NCBI GenBank assembly: GCA_907165135.1
Contig: OU015566.1
Coordinates: 6,138,001-6,202,000, forward strand
DNA: 64,000 nucleotides
Reading direction: 5' to 3'
DNA from: Oikopleura dioica
Lineage: Eukaryota; Animalia; Chordata
The translations under genes and the position numbers were made by a program. This document shows positions 4,635-57,185 of the stretch, piece by piece. Positions within the stretch are counted from its first letter, which is position 1. Each line of letters starts with the position of its first letter. The notes beneath the pieces are model-generated. The model did not search any database and had not been told where the DNA came from. It worked only from the letters and a program-made list of their open reading frames with translations.

Positions 4635-5974
4635 ATGACTTACTCGACCGAATCTTCTTCTTTTTCCGAGCAAGTTCTCAGCGGACTCGTTCCTACTACC
4701 GAGATTCCTCCTATTTGCACAACTCCACCAGCAGCCATCAAAATTGAGGTAAAGTTCAGAGATATTTCTCCTAGCTTTTTTGAAAGAAAATCATCAAAAA
4801 GCCGCCTGCGGCTGCTTAGCACAACTAGAATTAATAATAGAATCAACAATGTTGAATAAAAACTCCTTTTTCTAACCATCTTTTCTTTCAGGCAGCGAGC
4901 TACTCCTGCGACTGGGTAGAACACGGCGCGGAATGCAACCTCGAGTGGCCAAGCATGGCGGAATTCGTCGAGCACGTCGTGGAACAACACATGATGGAAT
5001 CTCCAAACGGCGAGTACTTCTGCTTCTGGAACAACTGCCCCCGCTTCGGAACTCCCTTCAAGGCCAAGTACAAGCTCGTCAATCACATGCGCGTCCACAC
5101 CGGCGAGAAACCCTTCAGCTGCAACACTTGCGACAAGAGCTTTGCCAGGAGCGAGAACTTGAAGATCCACAAACGAGTCCACACTGGCGACAAACCCTTC
5201 ATCTGCCCACATCCAGGTAAAAACTCAAAATTGAAAATCAAATTTAAAAATCAGGGAATATTTTCAATATTCTTATTTTTTCTTTCTCTCAAAATTGTCT
5301 ATTTCAGGTTGCGGCCGCGCCTTCTCCAATTCTTCCGACCGAAAGAAGCACCAGAACGTCCACCAGAAAGGCGTACTCATGTGCCCGATTCTCGGCTGTG
5401 ACCGAAGCTACTCCCATCCTTCTTCGATGCGAAAACACCTGAAAACTCACGGCGCAGCAGCGAAAGGAGTTCCTCTTCCTCAGCGAATTCTCGAAGGAAG
5501 CAGCCAGCTCAACCAACAGATTCATCAGGTAAAAATTTCTCCACCTCTTTCGCATTATAACAATCGTTCTAGGGAATCCAGAGCCTCGTCGACCCAGCAT
5601 ACCTCCACAATCAGCATCCTCCACATCCACTTCAGCCGATGGGCTCTCCTCACTCAGCCGGCTCCGGCTCTCCTCCTCCGTTTCATCCCTTCCCGCTCTA
5701 CCAACACCCAGCCAGCTTCATCAACACTTCGGCAGACTCTGGCCTCGCCTCCTCGCCAAACCAGTCGATGGGTTCTCCAGGCTCGACCGAAAATCAACCT
5801 CCTTACTGGACTCCTTTCCTCAGCGAGCTGAACTCTGCCGATGCCCCTCCTGCAGCTCCTCAGCAGCAATTCCCCTTCTGGCCGGTTCCAGCTCCAGCTC
5901 AGCAGATGAACCATTTCTGGCGAAATCTTCACAACCACAGCAATGGCGAAACGACCGTTCCATCCGTCTACTAG
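4635..5974 (+). CDS. zic: Zic-family C2H2 zinc-finger transcription factor (5 fingers, 4 exons)
   Basis: Spliced translation gives [10 protein letters not shown]...[89 protein letters not shown]: diagnostic Zic finger sequences. Introns at about 4749-4890, 5218-5307 and 5529-5571. Confidence 0.93.
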
Positions 5975-6328: not shown

Positions 6329-7466
6329 ATGGGAAGAGTCAATGACAAATTGCGCTGGGTCAAAAGATATTTGAAGAGGACTGGTAAACTAAAGACGCTT
6401 GTAGAACTGGACAAAGATATAAAAGAAAAGCTAAAGAAAGGTTCATTCCGGTTATCTGCGTAAAAATAAGCGCTTTTAAGACGACAGGGAATCTTCCAAG
6501 CCCAGCTTCAAGATTACGAAGAATCAGGATAGAAAGAATAAAGAAGATCGCCATGAAAAGAAGGATAAGCAAAAAAGGGAGAGGGTCGACGAGTCACTGA
6601 CTGATAAGAAGCAGACAGGTTGAAGAAGCTCTTCCTTCTTATTTCCATTAATTTTTTTAGATGATAACAAGCCAGTGAGGCTGAGTTTTACGATACAGAA
6701 AGCGCCAGAAAGAAAAAAATTCGAGTTTGAGCCAGCTAAACCGAAGAAAAAAGAGTTGAAAAAGGATACCGAAGAGCCTAAAATTGTCACCATTCCAAAG
6801 GATTTTAAGAAGATTGCCAAGAAGTTTGGACTGCCGCAAGATCACCTAGAATTCTTCTATGAATACAGAGAATCATTCAACTGGGAAATCAAAGAAAAAA
6901 TCATCGTTCATTGCACCGAGCCTGGTTGTAAATTGAATGTCAATAAAGCCGAAGGTTGTCTGACTGACCATATGATCTCTGTTCACAATTATACAGATAT
7001 TCCTTGTGGAAAAACTGACTGTTCATACATCGCTTTTTCTCGGAAGAACTTAAACTTGCATCATTGTCGTTTTCATGGGCACGGCCAGATACCTTCAAAA
7101 TTTGCGAGCTTTTCTTGTCCGATTCCCTCGTGCAAAATTGCTTTCACGGATAGGAAGAATTTAAAAGATCACGTTAACACTCATAAAAATATAGTATATT
7201 CTTGTAACTTTTGTCCTTACCGCGCTGTAAAGTATATTTGTTTGTTCTCTCACCTAAAATCCCACTTCAATATCAAAGATTTTGAGTGTGAAATTTGTTC
7301 TCGTCAATTTAAATCTCTTAGCGATTTAAACAAACATAAAAATTATACCCATAATACTGAAGGATTTCAATGTAAACACTGTAGCTTTACAAGCCAAAAA
7401 CACCGGGCCTTTATGGAACATGTTAAATCATGCACAGAACGGCTCAAACACTCGAGACTTCTCTGA
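6329..7466 (+). CDS. Multi-C2H2 zinc-finger protein with a possible LisH-like N-terminal helix
   Basis: Three exons joined by short GT-AG introns; repeated C-x2-4-C...H-x3-4-H units in ORF 6675-7466; N-terminus LRWVKRYLKRTGKLKTLVELDK. Confidence 0.85.
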
Positions 7467-10317: not shown

Positions 10318-10460
10318 CTCCTTTCATTTCGCATCTTCCCTTTTTAATAAACTTCAAAGCCTATTCTACACTGAAAAATACAAGAAAATTCTGAAACAAT
10401 CATTTGGAAAATTTGATCAATTAAAAAAAGTATTGAAAATGAGCTTCTTCTTGAAGACAA

Positions 10461-11369
10461 ATGGCGGCGACGGACAACAAAGTTTCTGTTGTCCTGCTCG
10501 GGCTGGGTGGAGTCGGAAAAAGTTGCATCTGTTTGAAATTGACGCAGCCAAGCCAGGAAATTCCACATGAGCACATCATAACGCCCTGGACAGACACGTG
10601 AGTAAAATTTGAGGAGATTCTTGAAGGGCGATCTGGGCTTGGCAACCTGTGTAGAAAATCACACATTTTCAGCTTTCAACACAGAGTGTACCTGCGAAGA
10701 GGAAAATCAGTGCTTCTGGAAATCGACGACACTGCCGGCCAAGAGGAAATGCGAGCTTTATCCGAGGTCAAGCTCGACAACAAAGATGCAGGCTCGTTTT
10801 CAAGAGCTATTTTCTGAAATTCGGAAAGGCAATTTGTTTGAAAACGAGGGAAAAAGTGATTCTAGTGCTCTCGCTAAGCGACGAGGAAAGTTTGGACACG
10901 GCGGCGAGATGGTTCGAGAAAGCAAGAGAGAAATATTTGAGGACCCAGAGAGAGGCGGCGCAGCAAGGGAAAACGCCCAAGAAGAGCAAAGGCGTCGAGA
11001 GACCCTTGCCAATTGTTGTAGGAACGGGTATTTACAAGCCGGAGTGAATTCGATGAGTAACAGGGCTTTTCTTTCCATATAAAATTGCTAGTGATTGAAA
11101 CCTTGCTTGAAATACCCGCGAAAAAGCCTGTAATAAATGCGATCTGAGTGGGAACGAAATCAGAGTCACCAGGGAAACGATTTCAGAGAGGATACAGATT
11201 CCTGAGAATCAGGTGCTACCCCTTAAATCTCCATTCTTCATTCCCTTTTCTTCAGATAATTTACACGTCAGCAAAGACGAACCAAAACGTCGAATTATTG
11301 TTCAAAACGGCGGCAGAGCTTGTCCTGAACACTGGTGCAAGAGACAGTCATAACTGTATGATAATGTGA
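10461..11369 (+). CDS. Ras-superfamily small GTPase with CAAX box
   Basis: G1 GLGGVGKS, G3 DTAGQEE, G4 NKCD, G5 SAK, C-terminal CMIM*. Assembly needs a GC-AG intron (10792-10856) and a GA-AG intron (11022-11126) plus two GT-AG introns. Confidence 0.88.
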
Positions 11370-11738: not shown

Positions 11739-14086
11739 ATGGCTCGGACAGGGCAAACAGCTCGTAAAAGCACGTATGGAAAAGCTCCACGAAAACAGTT
11801 GTCGACGAAACCAGCTCGCAAGACTGTTTCGGGAACAGTTTCTCAAATTGCTCGGGCGGCAGTGACGATGCCTGAATTGAAAGAAGAAGGACAGCTTGAA
11901 TTAGATGATGATCGCAAAAAAGTCGAGTTGGAAAGCGAAAAAGGTACAGTTTTCAGTTATCCAAGCTTTTTGAATTTGTGAATAAGGGATTGAATCCAGC
12001 AAAGAAGAGACGAAAGGGCTCAGCGTTTCTGGCACTGTTGACGATGAAGATGACGAGCTGATTGTAATTGGCGAAGTAATTACCGGCAGTCGTTGCAAGC
12101 AGACAGCCCGAAAAAGCACTGCAGGAGCAGCACCACGAAAAGAACTTGCCACAAAAGCAGCAAGAAAAAGCGCACCACGACCTTCTCAAATTATTGAAGT
12201 TGGTCCTGAAGTTATCGCTGCCATTGCTCCAGAAAGTGAAATCGTCGACAGGCCAGTTGAAATTGATGATGTTTGGGAATGGTTTTCAAAAACGAGAACC
12301 CGAGCGACTGGTGAATCCGGCGAAAAGATTCGCATAGGTATTCTTCATCTTTTTTTGATTCCTCAACAAATTTTCGGCAATTTAGATGAGGAAGATTATA
12401 GAGCGAGGAGGAAGATCGTGCAAGATTATCTCTTGCAGAAACGATTGTTGAAAAAAGCGGCTCGGAAATGTGAACCAGATACAGATAACATGTATGGATA
12501 TATTGAAGACAATGATTCTCAAGGTAAATTTTTCCCAAGATTTCTTGACTAAAAATAACTGAAGCAGTCGAGTTATCTCCTGAAGTTGTCGCTGCCATGG
12601 CTCCTGAAAGCGTTATCGAGGGCCGAACGGTTACAAACGAGGATGTGCGCGATTGGTTTATGAAGTCGGCAACTCGATATTTCGAAATTCGAAGGAAGAA
12701 GGCCAAAGAAATAACGCCAGGTTTGACTTTTGAATATTCGACTCTTCAACCGGCTTTTACTAGATGACAAAGACTTCACAGCACGGAGGGAGGTTGTTCT
12801 GGATTATATAAAAGTGTTGTCCGTAAGAGCAGCGCGGCATAGACGTTTAATGTGCTGTTATCGTCCCGATTTGACAGGAACCGCAACCGCTAGAAAAAGC
12901 GCACCGTGGGAACCGTCGATTCGACCACCGGAAAGTTTGAAGCCAAAGGTTCACAATTTTACAAAGGTATTAAACCTGCCTTTGTTCTAAAATGAACATG
13001 AATTTCTAGAGAAAAATTGTTGTTATTGAAGAAAATAGCCCGAAAAAAATGAAGAAATACGCCGAAACAGTTCGAATGCATTCTCTGATAAAAGAAAAGG
13101 GGTTCAAGATTGAAGACGGTCATTTCATCGCTAGGTCGACTTGCAAGTACCCAGTTGTGAAGATAAAACTTGATTTGATGGATAAAACACTTTTGAAATC
13201 TCTCTTGAAGAAAAATGATTCTGCTGTGGTTTTGGAAGCGGCGAAAAAAAAGTTGAATGAAGAGCAGATCAACGCTGCTCTGAAGAAAAGGAAGAAATCT
13301 ATCTCATCTCCCTGCATTCCAACGACGAACATAGCGAAGGACACAGTGGAGCAGTTGCAAAAATCGCCTTTTTTGACTCCCGCATCTCCAGGAGAAGAAA
13401 AAAACTCTACTGAGCCAGCAACTTTTCGTAAAAATGAACCCCAAACTTCCGAAAACGAAGAGTCTACTGCGATCTCTTCTTCTTCCTTGATTTCGTCGCC
13501 GATCACAACTGATGAAACTGCAGAGAAAGATTCAAATCTTCCAAAGACTAAAGAATCGCAGCAGCAACGAGCTTCTCCTTTAGTTTCTGCATCTGTCTTC
13601 CAGGGAGTTCCAGTTGAACAACAAAGCTCTATAGATCCAGCATCTTTGCCGCAGCACCAACCAGCTTCTCCTTTCATTTCTGCATCCAAAAAGATAAAGG
13701 AGGAGTCAACGATTGAACAACCATCGGCGGTTAAAGACGAACCTGACGAGCAAGAGCCAACATCCCTTCCCGCACTTTCTCCATTTTCCTTTAAACCTCA
13801 AGCTCCCATAAAACAGGAAGCCTACGCAGATCAGCTGTCTCAGGTTAAAAATGAACCTCAAGAACAAGAGCCAACCTCGTTTCCCACAATTTCTTCATCT
13901 TCTTTTACAGCTCAAGCTGCCATAAAAAAGGAAGCCCCCGCAGATCAGTCGTCTCAGATGAAAGTTGAGCCTCAAGAACAAGTTCTTCTGCCTCCAAAAG
14001 AAATACTCATGCCTTCTCGAAAACGTCACATGAAGGAAAACCCATCCGAAGACAATCCGTCAAAGAAACCAAAAACCTTCAACTGA
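11739..14086 (+). CDS. Histone-H3-tail-mimic protein, copy 1 (no histone fold)
   Basis: Starts MARTGQTARKSTYGKAPRKQLSTKPARKT; internal [27 protein letters not shown] at 12097-12177; further AARKCEP and TARKSAP. About 5 short GT-AG introns (first 11944-11986) link the exons in frame to ORF 13049-14086. Confidence 0.85.
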
Positions 14087-14422
14087 CCTATCAGACAATT
14101 AAATTGTCTTCCTCAAAAAGTTCCCCCATTGTAACACTGTCTTTGCACTAAATATTTTTACTGATTGAAACATAAATTATGTAACATAACCATTTTATGC
14201 CTGTCGAAACTTCTTGTACATAGCCGTCCGAAAAAACACCAATGCCTCCATTTTTGCCAGACCTGACTTCAACATTTTCTCGTTTTGCTTCAAACAGTTC
14301 CTGATTGAACTTCACTTATTTTGAAGCCACTTATCTCCGAAACCTTCAGAGTTTTCGCTGCCCAAATCATTTTTGAAGAAAACTCCCACGATAAAAAATT
14401 TTTAAATCTCTTCGTTGAAAGA

Positions 14423-16350
14423 ATGGCTCGGACAAAATGTATAGCTCGCAAAAGCTGTGGGGGACTAGCTCCTCGAAGACAGTTGGCGACGAAAGCAGCT
14501 CGCAAGACTGTTTCGGGAACAGTTTCTCAAATTGCTCGGGCGGCAGTGACCATGCCTGAATTGAAAGAAGAAGGACAGCTTGAATTAGATGATGATGTCA
14601 AAAAAGTCAAGTTGGAAAGCGAAAAAGGTACAGTTTTCAGTTGTCCAAGATTTTTGAATTTGTGAATCAGGGGTCGAATCAAAAAAAGAAGATACGAAAG
14701 GGCCCACCGTTTCCGAAACTTCTTCCAGCGCTGTTGACGTTGAAGATGACGAGCTGATTGTAATCGGCGAAGTTATTACCAGCAGTTGTTGCAAGCAGAC
14801 AGCCCGAAAAATTGAAGATGATGATTCCGAAACTCATCCGGAAAATGCTGAAGGTACATTTTCTCTAATGTTTCTTGAATGAAAACAACTTTCAAGAAAA
14901 AGAATCTGAACGCGAAGATTCAGCTATCCCGCCCTCCACAAGAGCCGCAGTGAAAAGCGCGCCAGCTATCTCTTCTGAAACAGTCGAGGTATCTCCTGAG
15001 GTTGTCGCTGCCATGGCTCCTGAGAGTGTTATCGAGGATCGAATGGCTACTAATGAGGATGTGCGCGATTGGTTTCTGAAGTCTGCAACTCGATATTTTG
15101 AAATTGAAAGGAAGTTGGTTTTAGAACTAACACCAGGTTTGATGATTAAATGTTCAATTCTTCCACAGATTCTTTATTAGATGATAAAGACTTCGTAGCA
15201 AGGAGGGAGATTGTGCTGGATTATATAAAGGAGTTGTCCGTGAGAGCGGCGCGAAATAGACGGCGAATCATTTGTTTTGCTCACCCTTTGACATGGCGTA
15301 TCACTAACAGGAAAATCGAATACTTACCGTCAATTCCACCACCTCCTCGAAGTAGTTTGAAGCCAGGTGTTCACAATTTTACTGAGGTGCTTAGGTGGCC
15401 GCTGTAAAAAGGAACTAACATGCACTTCTAGGGAGACATTGTTGTCGTGGATGAAAATAGCCCGAAGGAGAACGAGAAATATGCTTCAACAAATCGAATG
15501 AAAAGTCTGATTGGCAATAGGGAGTACAAAATTGAAGACGGTCATTTCGTCGCTCGGTCAACTTTCAAATACCCAGTTGTGAAGATAAAACTTGATTCGA
15601 TGGATGAAACACTTTTGAAATTTCTCTTGACGAAAGATGATTCTGCTGTGGTTTTAGATGCGGCGAAAAAAGTTTTGAACGAACAGCAGATCAAGGTTGC
15701 TCTGAAGAAAAGGGAGAAATCTATCTCATCTTCCTGCATTCCAACGACGAACACAGCGAAGGAAACAGTGGAGCAGTCGCAAAAATCGCCTTCTTTGACT
15801 CCCGCATCTCCAGGAGAAGAACAAAACTCTAAAAATCCAGCACATTTGGCTAAAAAGGAACCTCTAACTTCTCAAAAGAAAGTGTCTTCTTCCTTGACTT
15901 CACCGCTGGGGTCAAAAATTGCTGGTAAAAACGAGGCTCAATCTTCTCAAGATCAAGAACCAGCGGTTACTCCCGCAATTAATTCATCTTCCTCGATGTC
16001 TCAAACAGGTTTGGATTCCGTCTTTGCCCTCATTTATATTTTCCAAACTAGGCTGGATGTGTACTGCCGTGAACCAGGATGGAAAACCATGTGGCCGTGT
16101 TTTCCTCGACAAAGCCGACATTACTGTACATGTCGATCTTGGCCACAAAGACAGCAAACCGGAAAATATAGCCAGGGTTATTATCAGAAAAGCTCGGGAA
16201 CAGAAAGAATCATCATCTTCTTTGCTTCCTGCCTTTCCAGAACAAGTACCAACAAATTCTTCCTTTATTCCAGCCACAGAGCGAAAACGATTCTCGATGG
16301 AAAATCCATCGGAAGAAAATTGCCCAAAAAAGCCAAAAACCTCCACATAA
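14423..16350 (+). CDS. Histone-H3-tail-mimic protein, copy 2 (internal deletion; C2H2-like finger at C-terminus)
   Basis: Starts [29 protein letters not shown]; same intron positions as copy 1; lacks the first repeat domain; last exon (after intron 16009-16051) encodes CTAVNQDGKPCGRVFLDKADITVHVDLGH. Confidence 0.8.
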
Positions 16351-16699
16351 TTTAAGCTGTTTGAAATTGTTTTCATTTACAAGCGATGGGCCTACTATTT
16401 TTATTTACTGAAACACTACCATTTTTAGCACTAAAAGATGCCTTAATTTTTTGCCAGACCTGACTTCAAACTTCACTCGTTCCTTATTGACCTGTTCCTC
16501 ATTGAAATTCATTTATTCCAAAAGCTCAAAATTGAGTAAATCTCTCGAATTTTTCTCGTTTTGCTTCAAACAGTTCCTGATTGAACTTCACTTATTCTGA
16601 AGCCACTTATCTCCAAAACCTTCCGAGTTTTCTCTACCAAATCCTTTTTGAAGAAAACTCCCACGATAAAAAATTTTAATTTCTTCGTTTTTAAGAAGA

Positions 16700-19011
16700 A
16701 TGGCTCGGACATCGCAAATAGCTCGCAAAAGCTGCGGTGGACTAGCTCCTCGAAGACAGTTGGCGACGAACGCAGCTCGCAAGACTGTTTCGGGAACAGT
16801 TTCTCAAATTGCTCGGGCGGCAGTGACGATGCCTGAATTGAAAGAAGAAGGACAGCTTGAAATAGTTGATGGTGTCAAAAAAGTCGAGTTGGAAAGCGGT
16901 CAAGGTACAGTTTTCTGTTATCCAAGCTTTTTGAATTTGTGAATAAGGGATTGAATCCAACGAAGAAGAGACGAAAGAGCCTGGTGTTCACGGGACTTCT
17001 TCCAGCGCTGTTGACGATGAAGATGACGAGCTGATTGCAATAGGCGAAGTAATTACCGGCAGTCGTTACAAGCAGACAGCCCGAAAAAGCACTGGAGGAG
17101 CACCACCACGAAAACAACTCGCCATGAAAGTAGCAAGAAAAAGCGCACCATCACCTTCTCAAATTGTTGAAGTTGATCCTGAAGTTATCGCTGCCATTGC
17201 TCCAGAAAGTGAAATCGTCGACAGGCCAGTTGAAATTGATGATATTTTGGAATGGTATAGGAAAATGGGATCCCGAGCCCTCGAGGTTCTACGGAAGAAT
17301 TTTCTTGCACAGACTACTGAATCCGGCGAAAAGCTTAGCCCAGGTATTTATCATCTTCTTTGATTCCTCAACATATTTTCGGCAATTCAGATGAGGAAGA
17401 CTTCAGAGCAAGGAGGAAGATCGTGCAAGATTATCCCTTGGAAAAAGGATTGGTGACAAAAGCAGCACGAAAAAGTGCACCAGCTACAGATCATATTGAA
17501 GACGATGATTCGGAAACTCATCCGGAAAGTGATGAAGGTACATTTTCCGATTATTTCTTGAATAAAAATAACTGAAGCAGGAGAGGTATCCTCTGAAGTT
17601 GTCGCTGCCATGGCCCCTGAAAGTGTTATCGAGGGTCGAACGGTTACAAAAGAGGATGTGCGCGATTGGTTTTTGAAGTCGGCAAGTCGCTATTTTGAAG
17701 TTGAAAGGAAGTTGGTTTTAGAACTAACATCAGGTTTGACGATTAAATGTTCAATTCTTCTAAAGATTTTTTATTAGATGACAAAGACTTCATTGCACGG
17801 AGGGAGATTGTGCTGGAGTATATAAAGGTGCTCTCCGTGAGATCGGCGCGGAGTAGACGTCCAGCATGCCGTTGTCGTCCCGATTTGACAAAACTCGTAA
17901 CCCCTAGAAAAATCGAACCGAAGTGGGAACCGACGATTCGACCACCTCCTGAGGAAAGTTTGAAGAAAGGTGTTCACAATTTTACTGAGGTATTTAACTA
18001 ACCTTCGTATTAAAAGTTAGCATGAAATTCTAGGGAGAAATTGTTGTCGTTGATGAAAATAGCACGGAAGAAATCAAGAAGTACGCCTCAAAAGGTCGAA
18101 TGCAAACTCTGATTAACGAAAACCGAAAAGGTTACAAAATTGAAGACGGTCATTTCATTGCTCGTTCTACTAAAAGATTCCCAATTGTGAAGATAAAACT
18201 GAACTCGATGGATAAAAAACTTATGAAATATCTCTTGGAGAAAGATGATTCTGCTGTGGTTTCGGAAGCGGCGAAAAAACTTTTGAATGAACAGCAGATC
18301 AACTCTGCTCTGAACAAAAGGGAGAATTCTATCTCATATTCCTGCATTCCAGCGACGAACAGAGCGAAGGAAACAGTGGAACAGTCGCAAAAATCGCCTT
18401 CTTTGACTCTCGCATCTCATGGAGAAGCACAAAACTCTACCGAGCCAGTACCTTTTCGAAGAGATGAGCCCCTTGCGAAAACTTGTGAAATCGAAGAGAC
18501 TACTGCGATCTCTTCTTCTCCCTTACCGCCAATCAAATCTGATGAAACTGCAGAGAAAGATTCAAATCTTCCAAACATTGAAGAGTCACAGCAGCAGCAA
18601 CAAGCTTCTCCTTTAGTTTCTGCATCTGCCTTCCAGGCAGCTTCAGTTGAACAACAAAGCTCTATAAATCCAGCATCTTCGCCGCAGCAGCAACCAGCTT
18701 CTCCTTCTATTTCTGCTTCCCAAGAGATAAAGAAGGAGTCAACGATTGAACAACCATCGACGGTTAAAAATGAACCTTACGAGCAAGAGCCGACCTCCCG
18801 TCCCGCACTTTCTCCATCTACCTCTACACCTCAAGCTCCTTTAAAACAGGAAGTTTCCGCTGATCAGCCGTCTCAGGTGAAAATTGAGCCTCAAGAACAA
18901 GTTCCTCTGCCTCCTAAAGAAATACTCATGCCTTCTCGAAAACGTCACATGAAGGAAAAGCCATCCGAAGACAACCCGCCAAAGAAACCAAAACTCTTCA
19001 ACGACAATTAA
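16700..19011 (+). CDS. Histone-H3-tail-mimic protein, copy 3
   Basis: Starts [29 protein letters not shown]; internal [27 protein letters not shown] and [11 protein letters not shown] (17456-17488); exon structure parallels copy 1; ends with ORF 18100-19011. Confidence 0.85.
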
Positions 19012-19338
19012 AATTGTCTTCCTCAAAAAGTTCCCCGATTGAAACATTATCTTTGCACTTATTATTTTTATTGATTGAAACATTACCATTTTATGCCTGT
19101 CGAAACTATTTGTACATAACCTTCCGAAAAAACACCGGTGCCACCATTTTTGCCAGACCTGACTTCAACATTTTCTCGTTTTGCTTCAAATTGTTCCTGA
19201 TTGAACTTCACTTATTCTGAAGCCAATTATCTCCACTTAAAACCTTCCGAGTTTCCTCTACTCAACTCCTCTTTGAAGGAAACTCCCACAATAAAAAGAC
19301 AAATGAAATCTTATCTTATTTCATGTTTTGCCAGTAGA

Positions 19339-19883: not shown

Positions 19884-20620
19884 GGGACCCAGTTAGGTAG
19901 ATTTAGGCGCGGGTTCAGACGCTCCCTTGATGATCTGTTCTCAAGATTTTTTAATTTTTTCTTCTGCAAATCATATCCTTAGACTCTCAGCTTTCATTTG
20001 CTGCTTTCGAAATTTTTATACGGCTAAGAGTTTTGTCGCTAGAGCTGAATGAAGTTTATTAACTTCAAAAGCTATCTAGTCCTACAATTTTGATTTTACC
20101 GAATCAAAATTACTACCAGTAGAAAGCGGAGAAAATTCTCTACAAATCCCACCTAGTGTGCAATTTTCAGGTCAACACTGATTGTAATCAGGAAGCGATT
20201 CTTGGAAGTACTTAGCGCGGGCTCAGTGGGAATCCATCGCAAACAAGCCTTTTGAGCGCACTGTGACACGGTGCGCGCGCTAAATTTGGTTCATTTGAAT
20301 GATTATCAGTTTCTGTACGCCATTTATGACGACAAGATAATTGCACACTAGGTGGGATTTGTAGAGAATTTTCTCCGCTTTCTACTGGTAGTAATTTTGA
20401 TTCGGTAAAATCAAAATTGTAGGACTAGATAGCTTTTGAAGTTAATAAACTTCATTCAGCTCTAGCGACAAAACTCTTAGCCGTATAAAAATTCCAAAGA
20501 CAGCAAATGAAAGCTTAGAGTCTAAAGATATGATTTGCAGAAGAAAAAATTAAAAAATCTTGAGAACAGATCATCAAGGGAGCGTCTGAACCCGCGCCTA
20601 AATCTACCTAACTGGGTCCC
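19884..20620. mobile_element. TTAA-flanked foldback MITE with ~282-bp TIRs (Kolobok/piggyBac-like target)
   Basis: ttaa|gggacccagttagg...cctaactgggtccc|ttaa; arms 19884-20165 and 20339-20620 are near-perfect reverse complements; ~173-bp spacer. Confidence 0.92.
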
Positions 20621-40475: not shown

Positions 40476-43400
40476 ATGGTCATCGAAGAAGAAAACGAGA
40501 CAACAGAAAATCCAAATTTCCATACGAGAATCCAGGTTACCCGAATTTGAGCTTATTTAATAAAGTTCAATAATAGTGCCTTGACTGCGACTGCTTAGGC
40601 GTTCTGAGACAAAAAGGCAAAAAAGTTTTTTTGATGCCCGTGGAAGTTTTGACTACTCGGAGCATCCTTACTCAGGAATATGATGTAAGAAAATTGGAAA
40701 AGAAGAAAACATGGAAGAAAAAGGTCACTGCGAAAATGAGCTTGGAGAAACACGGAAACGCCACCCAGCCACAGCAGTACAGCTATCTTACTCTTGGCAC
40801 TGTTTTCTGGGTCACTGTTATTCTCATAGGTACCTCTCGAGTAATTTAAATATCTAATTTTACAAGCAAACTTCGCTTCCTTGAAAAAATCGCGCGGCGC
40901 AACGACTTTTCTGACGTCGAGCTGTCACCGAAACTACAAGAAATGCGTTAAAACTTCGTCAATGGACTTTTGCGGGCATTTGATGAAGCAATGCCGTGAC
41001 ACCAAGGAGTTTATCCTTCCTGAGCCGGTTTCGAAGGTCGAGCATGTCAAAGCGGCGCCTCTTACTTTTTCGGAGGAAGAAAATGAAGTGAATCTCCGCC
41101 GCTGTCAGAAGAAACGCTTTTACGACCAAAAAGTGTGCCGCCATCTCTGCTCAAACACGCTGGTTTTGAAATCAACGAGGACCAATCCGATCACGCCCTG
41201 CGAGTCGATCTGTTTTGGGCTGACTAGAAGCTTCGATTCTGCCGGGGAGGTCTGTCCGTTTCAGAAATACTGCTCCAAAGGTTGTCCTTGTCCTCATTAC
41301 GAATGCGAGAAGTTGGAGTCGCCTCAAAAACTTGTTCCAGTCTTTGATCTCCGAAAGTCTGAAAACAGTTCAACGCCAATCGAGTCAACTTCAACTCAGT
41401 CGACATCAACTGTGTCAACTTCGACGACTTGGTCAACAACATGGTCTTCAGCGCAGTCAACATCAACTTGGTCGACTCCAACAACAACAATGATAACATC
41501 TCCAATTACCATTTCAACTCAGTCAACATTGTCCTTGATCAACTCAACCGCTCAATCAAAGGGGAGCATAGGGCTTCCAAGTAGTAGTCAACTTGAAGCA
41601 CCAAACTTTGCGATTTTTCTGGTCGATTTCAATGGACAAGAGCGGCCAAGAGTGACAAATGCCTCAGACTTTTTGTTTTCTTATGAACGGTTTTGCTTAT
41701 TCGATGATGACTCATCATTGATGAGGGAAGCTCCTACAAATTAGGTTAAATAATTTTCGAGTCCTACTATTATTTACAATCATTCAAAACTAAAAAGTCA
41801 ATTGGTGTTACCTTTCTCAACGGGGAGCATTACTTGGTCGATGCGATCGGAAACTTGATGAGAGTGAAAGAAACTGATGCTGCTCCGATTATCATTCCGA
41901 ACCAACTCAAATATGTGTAAGTGAATATGTTATTCCGATTATTTGCTAGATCTCATGTTCAAAAAAATAAATAAAGATTTTCTGATCTAAAGAAGTCAAG
42001 GCCCAGATAATTTTCTCGTTCTAAAGAGGCCGCTTCGTTTTCCACTTTGGGTCATCGATTGGAACCCACCACATTGAGATTCGCATGAAAGACAGGGACA
42101 GCAAGATCTTTCCGGTCGTTGTTATTTGAAAACGGTCGAAATTACACAATTTTATGATCACAAAGAGGCGCTATTGCCTTTGAAAGCAAAGTTTTGACCG
42201 GTAAAAGCGCCCCAAGCGAGAGTCAAGACAAGTGCTTCTATTACGCGCCGGATTACAATTTGAACAGATTTGAAACGGCTCAAGGTAAGGATAAGCTCCT
42301 TTAGTTTCGTTTAACATTTTTGAGGCTGGATCGCGAGCAACCACTTCAACGCTCGAACTTCCTCGGTCAGCTTTGGCGGAACATTTTATCTGATGAGTTT
42401 GAGACTCGGCAAAAAATGGATAACCCTTTCAAAAACGATTGCCCTGAACTCGATCCGATCAACGGAAGAGTTGAATAAGGGCTGGAGGAAGGAAGAGCTA
42501 GCGATTCCTGCAACTTTCCGCGACTTCGATCCTGTGCACGTGATTCCTCTGGAATGGATTTGAAAGAAACTAAACTCGTTCTGTGTGATTTTCTTTGAAT
42601 CCAAAAAGACCGACCTCGGTCAATTGATGCTTATTCTCGTCACTAGAAGCATCGCCCTCTCGAACACGCAGTACTCGATTTTACTTGAAAAAGAAGGGAA
42701 ATTCTTGACGCTTGGGAGCGAATGGATTGGGTCCTTGATCAATTACGAGCGAGAATCGCGTTGTTTCTCTGGTTTGTACGCTCCGAAAGATTACGCTTAT
42801 TCGAATGAATTCGGAACCAACAACGACGAGTGCGAGTATTTCATCAATGGCTTCATCAACAACGATCGTATTTACCTCCAGAATATCGTTTTCGACACGA
42901 CTTTTGAAATTTATTTCGACTTCGGAGAGGATCTTCACTTTAGTTAATATGGGAACATAGGTTCTCTACGGGCCGTAGACTACGGCAAATAGAATCCTGA
43001 CTTATGGTCCATAACTCGTGTAGCTCTAGATAGTTGATCCTCCTATGAGATCACATCGAGCTTGATTTCCGGCAACAAAGTGCTGAAAACAAAATGCTTG
43101 TGACTAGCAACCCGTATTTCGAATTCCACAAAGATGTCTTTCCGTACTTCGCGAAAAACGCTGTAAAAAATCAAACCGCGTTTCCGCAATCAGGCGAGGC
43201 TCTTGATCAAAGAAGCATAATCATTTAGTCGCAAGTCTTGACTAACGGCGATAAACAGAACCCAAAAAGCAAGCAGTTTGTCTCCTCCCTATCCACTGGC
43301 AATTCTACCCGATTTCCCCTTTTCGTCTTTCAATGAGTCCTTATTCCAAATTTCTTCATTCGAACTGGACTTTAACGTAACGCAAAAACTCTCTTTCGAC

Positions 43401-55627: not shown

Positions 55628-57185
55628 GAATATATTTCAATCCGTTTCAATGGGACAACATGGACGGGATCCATGTCTCTATATTCAGCCGGCAATTGAA
55701 TATCGTCTTTTCTCCATCCTTTTTCCAATTCTTCGTCTTTTCTGATTTTATGCAGGGCAACGGTAGTCGAAAGTGTAAGATACTTGTTACCAAGCTCAAC
55801 ACTCATCAAAGTAAAGACTCCTCTAAAGCTAACGGAAGATGTCTTCGCGTTGAAATGGTTACTAGCAATATGGCCCTGTGCTTCTTCAAATTTACCCGAA
55901 TTGAAATCGGGAGCATAGTAGTAGCATTTATATTGCCTTTTCGTTGGTGAGCTTTTACTGCTCAAAAATTTAACTCACGTTAAAATATCTTCAAATTTTT
56001 GAACGTTTCAAATGACAATGACGGCAAACACTTTTCTTCCCTTTTCTTGGTAGCGACTCTCAATATGGTGAGTTCCGATAGACGCGCCAAAATGAAATAC
56101 GAAATATCCCCTATAAAAAGTAAGCTTCGTTTTTTTGGGAAAGACATAATCTTATCAGGGACCCCATTTATGAATACTTACAATCTCCGTCTTTTCAAAT
56201 CATTAGCAATTAGAGTTGTACCATTATTTTCAACCACCATCAGATCTCCCCAAACATCTACCAAATACTGTTTGCCCTGAAGAAAAGTAGCACCGAATGA
56301 CTTTTGCGTTTTCTGGATCTTGTTTATACTGTTATGAAGTCTTATCTGTAAATTTTAAAACGTTCATAAGGGAAGGAAGTATGTGATGAGCTCATGTTTA
56401 CTGGCATAGTTTTCCCATTCCAATCGGATAGAATAATAGGATACTGCTTCCAAATGTCTCTACTTGACCAACGGTCAGTTATTAATGTTGCATTATCAGG
56501 AATGTCGTCTTGGGAAATGGATGTGGTGGAGTTGATCCGTAAATCAAAAACGGGAACCATCTTCTGACGAGAACCGAGCTTTTCGCACTTGTAATAAGGA
56601 CAAGGACAGCCATTTTTGCAGTATTTCTGAGTTGGACAAACGGCTCCTGCAGCATCGGAAGATCGAGTCAGCGCGAAACAGATCGCCTCACAGGACGAGA
56701 TTGGATCCTTCTTCGTTGATTTCAAAACCAGCGTTGCTGAACAAAGATGACGGCACATTTTCTGGTCGTAAAACTGTTTCTTCTGACAGCGGATGAGATT
56801 CACTTCGTTGTCTTCTTTTGTAAAAACAGCAGCTTTTTCTTCTTTTGCTTTGATTTCGGAAACTGGCTCGGGAAAGATGAATTCTTCTGTTTCGTAGCAT
56901 TGCTTCATCAAATGTCCGCAAAAGTCCATGGTGTTCGTTCGAACGCATTTCTTATAATTTCGATGGCAAGTTGAAGTCAGAAAAAGGGTGGAAAAGTGGT
57001 GACGAAATTTATAATCGACAAAAAATCTGCGATAACTTTTCGTCGCACGATTGAAAAATTTTCCACCCTTGTCAGGAAAGTCGTCTGGGCTCGAGATCTT
57101 TCCAATGATACCACATTGGCTTAAATTGTTTAGTCGACTACCTAGGTAGTGTTTCTAGGGGCTAACGGTCGGTCTAGTACTAAAG

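Follow-up and report, generated by a model that had tools for sequence, protein, structure and literature searches.

Transcribed tandem genes of Oikopleura dioica encode histone H3 tails, up to several per protein, without a detectable histone fold

What does a histone tail do when it is not attached to a histone? This question is raised by three adjoining plus-strand genes of the chordate Oikopleura dioica (OKI2018_I69 chr1.g1612, g1613 and g1614, here copies 1, 2 and 3), which lie in a 64,000-nucleotide stretch of contig OU015566.1 (positions 6,138,001 to 6,202,000), hereafter the window. The genes encode proteins of 709, 569 and 696 amino acids (aa) (NCBI CAG5104860-62) that are unnamed and have no assigned function or Pfam domain. 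An earlier note, made from the sequence letters, had described three tandem spliced genes whose products carry H3-like tails, and this description holds: exon models built from GT..AG splice sites and then compared with the annotation (P0001 for copy 1, P0003 for copy 2 and P0002 for copy 3; five introns of 41-48 nt per gene) gave translations identical to the annotated proteins, and each of five 30-residue tails agrees with H3 at 21-25 of its 30 positions. We report that the genes are transcribed and spliced, and we propose that they represent a real, host-encoded instance of histone mimicry with a putative function in chromatin regulation.

Identity was counted over residues 1-30 of mature H3, using P0005 as the reference, and is given for the N-terminal and internal tails in Table 1; the H3 tail found these regions by tblastn within the window at E values of 1e-9 to 1e-10. 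Recounting the ARK motifs gave the numbers listed previously (6 in copy 1, 3 in copy 2 and 5 in copy 3). The N-terminal K27 site reads ARKT in 3/3 copies, one motif in copy 1 is ARKC and the third motif in copy 2 is ARKI. Over six frames, ARK[ST] occurs 12 times in the 7.3-kb cluster vs 5 times in the remaining 56.7 kb of the window. Mimicry of the free H3 N-terminus, which the earlier note saw in each gene, holds at K4 for copy 2 alone, this position being changed in copy 1 (K4G) and copy 3 (K4S). New here are an ARKSAP-like motif before each helical repeat, a C2H2-like zinc finger in copy 2 and a best-conserved stretch, residues 26-54, that is not H3-like.

Is a histone fold present elsewhere in the proteins? 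By sequence it is not, as the earlier note had stated: there was no Pfam histone match, alignment of the H3 fold scored no better than with shuffled proteins (p 0.31-0.64), tblastn within the cluster gave no match beyond H3 residue 44, and matches to PDB sequences were confident only over H3 1-33. A segment ending in PEL, proposed as a remnant of H3 residues 37-64, turned out to be a chance likeness (p ~0.33), with 38-81 other windows per protein scoring equally. In AlphaFold2 (AF2) models with mean pLDDT 45 (alignment of 3 sequences) and 64 (6 sequences) the N-terminus is disordered, two repeats are helical, a small domain is of alpha/beta type and the long tail is again disordered. For these low-pLDDT models no structural match reached E<=0.001 or Z>=5 (all Foldseek E>0.001; best Z 4.8 among 48,161 chains). 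Having H3 tail sequence and no histone-fold domain that could be found, the cluster proteins are probably not histone variants.

Are the genes expressed? Spliced transcripts, on which the earlier claim depended, are present: in contigs of sequencing runs X3 and X4 at least 8 of the 15 introns of the models are skipped, the joints falling at the expected GT..AG ends; these are one intron in copy 1 (12721-12763, X3 only), introns 2, 3 and 4 in copy 2 and introns 2-5 in copy 3. These are the introns found among the joints listed, beyond which lie fifteen further joints; the two runs belong to one study, and the 'DNA?' label on both is a guess. The contigs of X5 and X6 have none of these joints and run through the introns, so these runs behave as DNA. 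In X3, loose contig ends before 16694, 14419 and 19332 correspond to the 3' end of the 40-nt O. dioica spliced leader, the sequence of which is given in the available part of PMC6883708. For the leader junction placed at copy 2 the acceptor is missing in this haplotype and present in an X6 contig before a copy-2-type start. Because contigs skip predicted introns and one run carries the spliced leader, we conclude that the cluster genes are transcribed and spliced and that at least a copy-3-type mRNA is trans-spliced. Four RNA runs from 2026 (4-59% of each read) yielded 44-116 reads at 85-95% identity, which fell overwhelmingly on the flanking genes and scarcely touched the cluster; since they come from another lineage they are uninformative here.

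Some contigs of X3, X5 and X6 differ by 10-13% or join parts of different copies (window 12327-18935), which suggests further paralogs, recombinant alleles, or copy-number or conversion variants among individuals.

Which parts of the proteins are constrained? The paralogs differ with a synonymous divergence (dS) of 0.17-0.48. Their frames have been kept open: when the 278 changes that separate copies 1 and 3 were simulated neutrally, the frame stayed open in none of 5000 replicates (mean 10.3 stops), and among 12 of the 72 indel rows 6/6 coding indels are multiples of three vs 1/6 non-coding ones. The ratio of non-synonymous to synonymous divergence (dN/dS) varies along the genes, with repeat B being the most constrained folded part (0.28-0.43), the N-terminal tails ranging between 0.62 and 2.2, and the internal tail, with few changes, at 2.2. 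Thus the expected constraint on the tails survives only in part: whole tails evolve near or above a ratio of 1, and only the ARK cores look constrained. Specifically, the ARKS/ARKT codons of copies 1 and 3 have 0 non-synonymous changes in 36 sites vs 20 in 95 elsewhere in both tails (Fisher p 0.002), and across four N-terminal tails, including that of the homolog P0008, 7/8 motif positions equal H3 vs 6/22 of the others (p 0.005). Over six tails, K9, S10 and K27 are retained in 6/6, K23 in 5/6, K4 in 4/6, T3, T11 and K18 in 3/6, S28 in 2/6 and K14 in 1/6; position 28 is threonine in the other four and so has a hydroxyl residue in 6/6, and A7 and A25 are invariant in the N-terminal tails. These data point to a constraint confined to the K9/S10 and K27 motifs and not extending over whole tails. 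The synonymous codons of N-terminal and internal tails hold no trace linking them (8/19, 6/18 and 5/17 identical vs 6.3, 5.8 and 5.2 expected).

Copies 1 and 3 share the same order of modules: the free H3 tail, the 26-54 motif, an acidic block with a SUMO-interacting-motif (SIM)-like stretch, a second full tail and repeat A, and then the partial third tail, an acidic block, repeat B, domain C, a disordered region with 4-5 further SUMO-consensus sites and a bipartite motif resembling a nuclear localization signal (NLS). The SIM, SUMO-consensus and other short motifs in this annotation were assigned by pattern. For the NLS described as RKRH..KKPK, copies 1 and 3 have this form while copy 2 reads RKRF..KKPK; the NLS-like motif is retained in the homologs P0006 and 39%-identical P0019. 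Residues 26-54, the best-conserved stretch of the family, are 28/29 identical to the diverged P0008 (flanking segments, 5-9/14 and 4-6/14), include a short predicted helix, have no Pfam match and are probably a binding motif of a new kind. Repeats A and B are homologous (score reached by 0/2000 shuffles), an ARKSAP-type motif stands before each, and a phase-1 intron cuts both at an equivalent place, which together argue that the 'motif + repeat' module was duplicated inside the gene. In the history that we infer, an H3 gene would have been the source of the captured tail, which became joined to a lineage-specific protein, and the module of K27-type motif and helical repeat would have been duplicated with its intron before the tandem gene duplication. 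Domain C, as modelled within the longer protein, gave no known fold match.

In copy 2 everything between the internal ARK and the end of repeat A has been lost, so that this copy is without repeat A and the greater part of the internal tail. It has acquired an exon (from 16052) that opens with the C2H2-like finger. All 12 PDB sequence matches to this finger are zinc-finger-containing proteins, the single stretches being weak; it has the C2H2 ligand pattern with a long, 9-residue loop and falls under the Pfam cut-offs. Hand-translated loose contig ends in four runs read as a second version of the finger at another locus with C, C, F, H and H intact. The sequence PVVKI was considered as a PxVxL-like HP1-shadow motif and rejected, as it sits in a predicted strand and is missing from P0019.

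How do these proteins relate to known systems? No description of such a fold-less multi-tail H3 family was found in the full-text literature, a scope outside which subscription papers and bioRxiv supplements lie. For O. dioica, the portion available of the histone survey PMC3156773 gives the H3 variants H3.2, H3.3, H3t.1-3 and CenH3 plus a silent truncated H3sh, and long spliced tail-fusion genes are not described in that portion. These variants belong to the same species and share the H3 N-terminal tail with the cluster proteins, but have a histone fold or, in the case of H3sh, are an unexpressed fragment in the histone cluster. The H3K9-mimic proteins G9a/EHMT2, GLP, SETDB1, ATF7IP and DNA ligase 1 (excerpts of bioRxiv 10.1101/2025.01.21.634156 and PMC8166343) likewise have ARK[S/T] in disordered regions, conserved above its surroundings, with two such motifs in SETDB1; theirs are short motifs in conserved enzymes or cofactors, whereas the Oikopleura proteins carry the whole 30-residue tail up to twice, besides partial copies, have the K9 as well as the K27 site and possess no catalytic domain. 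Validated mimics are, as far as the excerpt of bioRxiv 2025.01.21.634156 goes, methylation-dependent docking sites in disordered regions, and the Oikopleura tails, including their ARK[S/T] motifs, lie in low-confidence, probably disordered regions of the AF2 models. H3TMs (Chen et al. 2021; PMC8166343, in part) have a free N-terminus M-A-R-x after methionine removal, and copy 2 and P0008 fit their pattern M-Z-R-X-K; however, H3TMs match about 4 residues, the Oikopleura tails match through K27, and copies 1 and 3 are without K4.

PAF15/PCLAF (PF15715 'histone like domain'; excerpt of PMC13752237) is also host-encoded and fold-less with an H3-like N-terminus, a likeness drawn from the Pfam name. 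The cluster proteins score far below the PF15715 gathering cut-off (E 0.28; 12.4 bits vs 23.4), are 5-6 times longer, lack the PIP (PCNA-interacting protein) box in all three cases, judged by its pattern, and have lost the very lysines, K14 and K18, that are of the ubiquitin type; published data, as far as available, report no DNMT1/3 detected in O. dioica. EZHIP (bioRxiv 10.64898/2025.12.12.693809, in part) resembles them: it is lineage-specific, evolves fast, has been duplicated repeatedly and contains an NLS, repeats and a histone-mimic motif that is conserved; that motif is K27M-like and inhibitory, whereas the Oikopleura proteins keep lysine at K27 in 6/6 tails, and no homology to EZHIP was found. 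By analogy they may work like the G9a/SETDB1-type mimics, differing in having complete gene-derived tails in several copies. Assignment to PAF15 (below cut-off, no PIP box) or to EZHIP (K27 intact) was rejected.

What, then, might the tails do? SUV39/G9a/SETDB1, PRC2, chromodomains and Aurora B have ARKS as the core that they recognize around K9 and K27, while activating or ubiquitin marks are placed on K4, K14 and K18. The Oikopleura family keeps the K9/K27 set and sheds the K4/K14/K18 set. The enzymes that had been named as acting on such motifs exist in O. dioica: the supplement of PMC5240408, in the part available, has Suv39H1/2, SETDB1 and EHMT1/2; partially available listings have two EZH2, with SUZ12, PCGF and RNF1 not detected there; and Aurora B phosphorylates H3S10/S28 according to an excerpt of PMC6681789. 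The reading that we favour, and rate about evenly balanced between right and wrong, is that the proteins work in the nucleus as adaptors: their tails would be methylated or phosphorylated and would dock readers of K9/K27. H3K9/K27 methyltransferases of the animal itself would methylate the ARKS/ARKT sites and phosphorylation by Aurora B would act as the switch, so that several methyl-lysine readers or writers would be held together on a single molecule. Targeting would be by the helical repeats, domain C or, in copy 2, the zinc finger. All steps after transcription (modification, location and reader binding) are predictions from the sequence. A bolder idea, which we consider unlikely, is that the cluster stands for a class of animal chromatin regulators made from free, multiplied H3 tails: a captured tail would have been pruned to its two silencing sites and become a soluble 'pseudo-heterochromatin' scaffold that stimulates or buffers the K9/K27 machinery and possibly replaces the Polycomb parts not found (SUZ12, PCGF, RNF1).

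A multivalent adaptor is preferred to three other explanations because the motifs are retained, the enzymes are present and validated mimics dock by methylation, and it suits the folded domains and the copy 2 finger better than a bare sponge does. The proteins could instead be a competitive sink by which K9/K27 writers or readers are soaked up off chromatin, perhaps as maternal or germline stock, in the manner of EZHIP but as substrates. Several tails per protein would serve such a sink, fast evolution and tandem duplication are as described for EZHIP in the accessible text, the transcript carries a spliced leader as do most maternal O. dioica mRNAs (PMC6883708, available part), and most K9 writers and both EZH2 are ovary-biased in the data available to us. 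Yet the leader is also found on many housekeeping mRNAs, e.g. that of the neighbouring mRpL55, there is no K-to-M change (lysine at K9 and K27 in 6/6 tails), and near-histone abundance would be required; we regard a sink as improbable. Doubtful to a slightly greater degree is that the tails are basic patches with a kinase switch, binding DNA or the acidic patch or working in import until Aurora B, acting at ARKS, switches them off; lysine methylation would then play no part. Here R8-K9-S10 and R26-K27-S/T28 fit the Aurora consensus, with the hydroxyl at position 28 always kept, and basic tails alternate with acidic blocks (net charge of copy 1 per 50 aa: +8, -11, +7), but other basic residues (K14, K18 and K4) are freely lost, and the invariant A7/A25 of the N-terminal tails fit recognition by chromodomains and SET domains, which is well established for such residues, better than charge alone.

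The tails may also be passengers, the H3 pieces being decaying relics in a young, weakly constrained chimeric family whose function resides in residues 26-54, the repeats or domain C; we judge the chances of this to be as slim as those of the basic patches. It would account for the high dN/dS, the internal tail lost in copy 2, the decay forms ARKC, ARKI and AAVKSAP, the chimeric or extra copies among individuals and the lack of a synonymous-codon trace joining N-terminal and internal tails. Against it, the K9 motif is invariant though amino-acid changes flank it on both sides, and it is kept in P0008 despite 5-9/14 neighbouring differences. Several observations also weigh against the adaptor. 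Whole-gene dN/dS is 0.66-0.86 and most tail residues are unconstrained at the tail ratios given above (0.62-2.2), the excess at non-motif tail positions (pN 0.21 vs pS 0.08, p 0.12) being not significant. At codons 27-54 the copies hardly differ synonymously (0-1 changes in 21 sites), and because of this near-identity at silent sites part of the K27-site conservation within the cluster may reflect gene conversion. Nor can the tails count as independent, since copies 2 and 3 resemble each other and a single homolog comes from outside, and the sample is small. Copy 2 is expressed despite loss of the internal tail, and since the best-conserved segment, 26-54, is not H3-like, the core function may lie elsewhere. 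Finally, a single study, maybe the assembly's own, supplied the two runs behind the RNA evidence, both of them indexed 'DNA?'.

Does the family extend beyond this locus? A phmmer search of 1.84 billion representatives gave 199 matches. Homology reaching beyond the H3 tail is seen in five of them, each an unnamed fragment of a Logan or ENA contig: P0006 (57%), P0007, P0008 (cluster member P0156), P0009 and P0019 (39%). P0007, P0008 and P0009 enter apparent intron sequence at the intron positions of the window genes and therefore probably belong to other Oikopleura lineages; O. dioica lineages diverged ~25 Mya (PMC11067885, available part). P0008 retains ARKS at K9 and ARKT at K27, with K14I, K18R and Q19Y and differences at 5-9/14 neighbouring positions. 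Outside this assembly, word searches (lengths 330-2000, 389-1241 and 141-2000) brought up no full-length homolog with a name, which is weak evidence of absence, atlas searches gave no usable match to the cluster proteins, and the gene ids g1612-14 are absent from the 4 supplements of PMC11067885. One locus among 236 candidates of a metagenome scan (L001) was dismissed as a chance match in 57% GC DNA.

Among 157 proteins examined, 115 had an H3 tail without the fold; most of these come from ordinary H3 genes as short fragments and were therefore left out of the analogs, and P0018 looks like a mis-predicted histone cluster. Allacma fusca CAG7786926.1 (P0020), a prediction from a springtail, has three H3 tails with acidic Ser/Glu spacers in 299 aa and no histone fold. 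P0026/P0157 (predictions from ENA contigs) have three K9-centred H3 tails with acidic spacers and no fold, and P0039 (an ENA contig prediction) joins a SET-like domain (E 0.0018) to three H3 tails, possibly a writer with built-in substrates. These proteins resemble the Oikopleura copies in having several H3 tails, acidic or low-complexity spacers and no fold; with no similarity outside the tails, they point to separate origins, so that the same fold-less multi-tail design may have arisen independently in a springtail. In the long proteins P0017 and P0038 an H3 tail stands immediately after LRGG, the ubiquitin C-terminal motif, and cleavage could expose a free H3-like N-terminus. Single H3 tails joined to unrelated domains occur in P0004, P0153, P0053 and P0132 (Logan/ENA contigs).

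Known host histone mimics are short motifs in enzymes, and here expressed animal genes carry entire H3 tails, several per protein, off the nucleosome. Should the tails prove to be modified and bound, they would offer a natural test of whether histone marks can serve as a scaffold or buffer away from chromatin, and this in a chordate that can be cultured and whose Polycomb system is reduced. Whatever their function, anti-H3K9me, K27me and S10ph antibodies as well as tail-peptide mass spectrometry could detect these proteins in Oikopleura.

Table 1. Features of the cluster in window coordinates; fractions are identities to residues 1-30 of mature H3
Feature	Position	Strand	Details
Copy 1, chr1.g1612, 709 aa	11739..14086	+	exons 11739-11943, 11987-12337, 12386-12523, 12565-12720, 12764-12966, 13010-14086
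N-terminal H3 tail, copy 1	11742..11831	+	23/30; K4G, K9, S10, K14, K18, K27, S28T
Conserved family motif, residues 26-54, copy 1	11814..11900	+	not H3-like past K27
Internal H3 tail, copy 1	12088..12177	+	25/30; K14A
Helical repeat A, copy 1, ~residues 135-213	12186..12470	+	cut by intron 2; helices in AF2 model
Copy 1 counterpart of the partial third tail of copy 3	12436-12492	+	reads ARKC
Helical repeat B, copy 1, ~residues 232-312	12565..12850	+	cut by intron 4 at matching place; dN/dS 0.28-0.43
Extra ARKSAP motif, only in copy 1	12889..12906	+	
Domain C, small alpha/beta, copy 1, ~residues 352-450	13010..13315	+	pLDDT 70-86; homologs P0006 (57%), P0019 (39%)
Bipartite NLS-like motif, copy 1	14018..14074	+	sequence
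Intergenic spacer	14087..14422	.	homologous to 16351-16699 and 19012-19338 (upstream of mRpL55); repeat families D7, D8, D10, D13
Copy 2, chr1.g1613, 569 aa	14423..16350	+	exons 14423-14627, 14671-14853, 14897-15136, 15181-15386, 15432-16008, 16052-16350
N-terminal H3 tail, copy 2	14426..14515	+	22/30; K4 retained, K14L, K18R, S28T
Residues 26-54 motif, copies 2 and 3	14498-14584; 16775-16861	+	
Degenerate K27-type motif AAVKSAP before copy 2 repeat	14944..14964	+	also in homolog P0009
C2H2-like zinc finger, only copy 2	16060..16146	+	C-x9-C-x3-F-x5-I-x2-H-x4-H
Trans-splice acceptor AG, 4 nt 5' of copy 3 ATG	16694..16695	+	spliced-leader loose end in X3
Copy 3, chr1.g1614, 696 aa	16700..19011	+	exons 16700-16904, 16948-17343, 17391-17537, 17581-17733, 17778-17989, 18034-19011
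N-terminal H3 tail, copy 3	16703..16792	+	21/30; K4S, K14L, K18R, K23N, S28T
Internal H3 tail, copy 3	17061..17150	+	24/30; K14A, T22M; position 27 is lysine, not methionine
Third, partial tail, copy 3 (H3 18-36, 68%, ARKSAPAT)	17444..17500	+	tblastn E 0.007
Bipartite NLS-like motif, copy 3	18937-18993	+	sequence

How did the cluster come to have its present arrangement? The flanking genes are all on the plus strand, with exons of a Ras-like GTPase (weak Pfam match, best E 4e-4) upstream and mRpL55 (Pfam E 4e-9) downstream. Homology among the spacers delimits the tandem duplication unit: it begins at the ATG and ends shortly before the mRpL55 start, and copies 2 and 3 are therefore preceded by copies of the DNA upstream of mRpL55. 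Because all starts share AG-(AAG)A-ATG acceptors, the cluster and mRpL55 may be transcribed as, or like, an operon.

Other features of the window were seen in passing. The Ras-like small GTPase exons, at 10455-11353, lie immediately 5' of the cluster on the same strand, and further upstream there are a Zic-like C2H2 zinc-finger gene (4856-5828) and a second multi-finger gene (6624-7463). Two related cysteine-rich open reading frames are located at 40845-41741 (+) and 56345-57154 (-), one of which was scanned against Pfam and had no match. Just 3' of mRpL55, at 19904-20600, there is a 270-nt inverted repeat, 97% complementary with a 157-nt spacer, which has the look of a miniature inverted-repeat transposable element (MITE).

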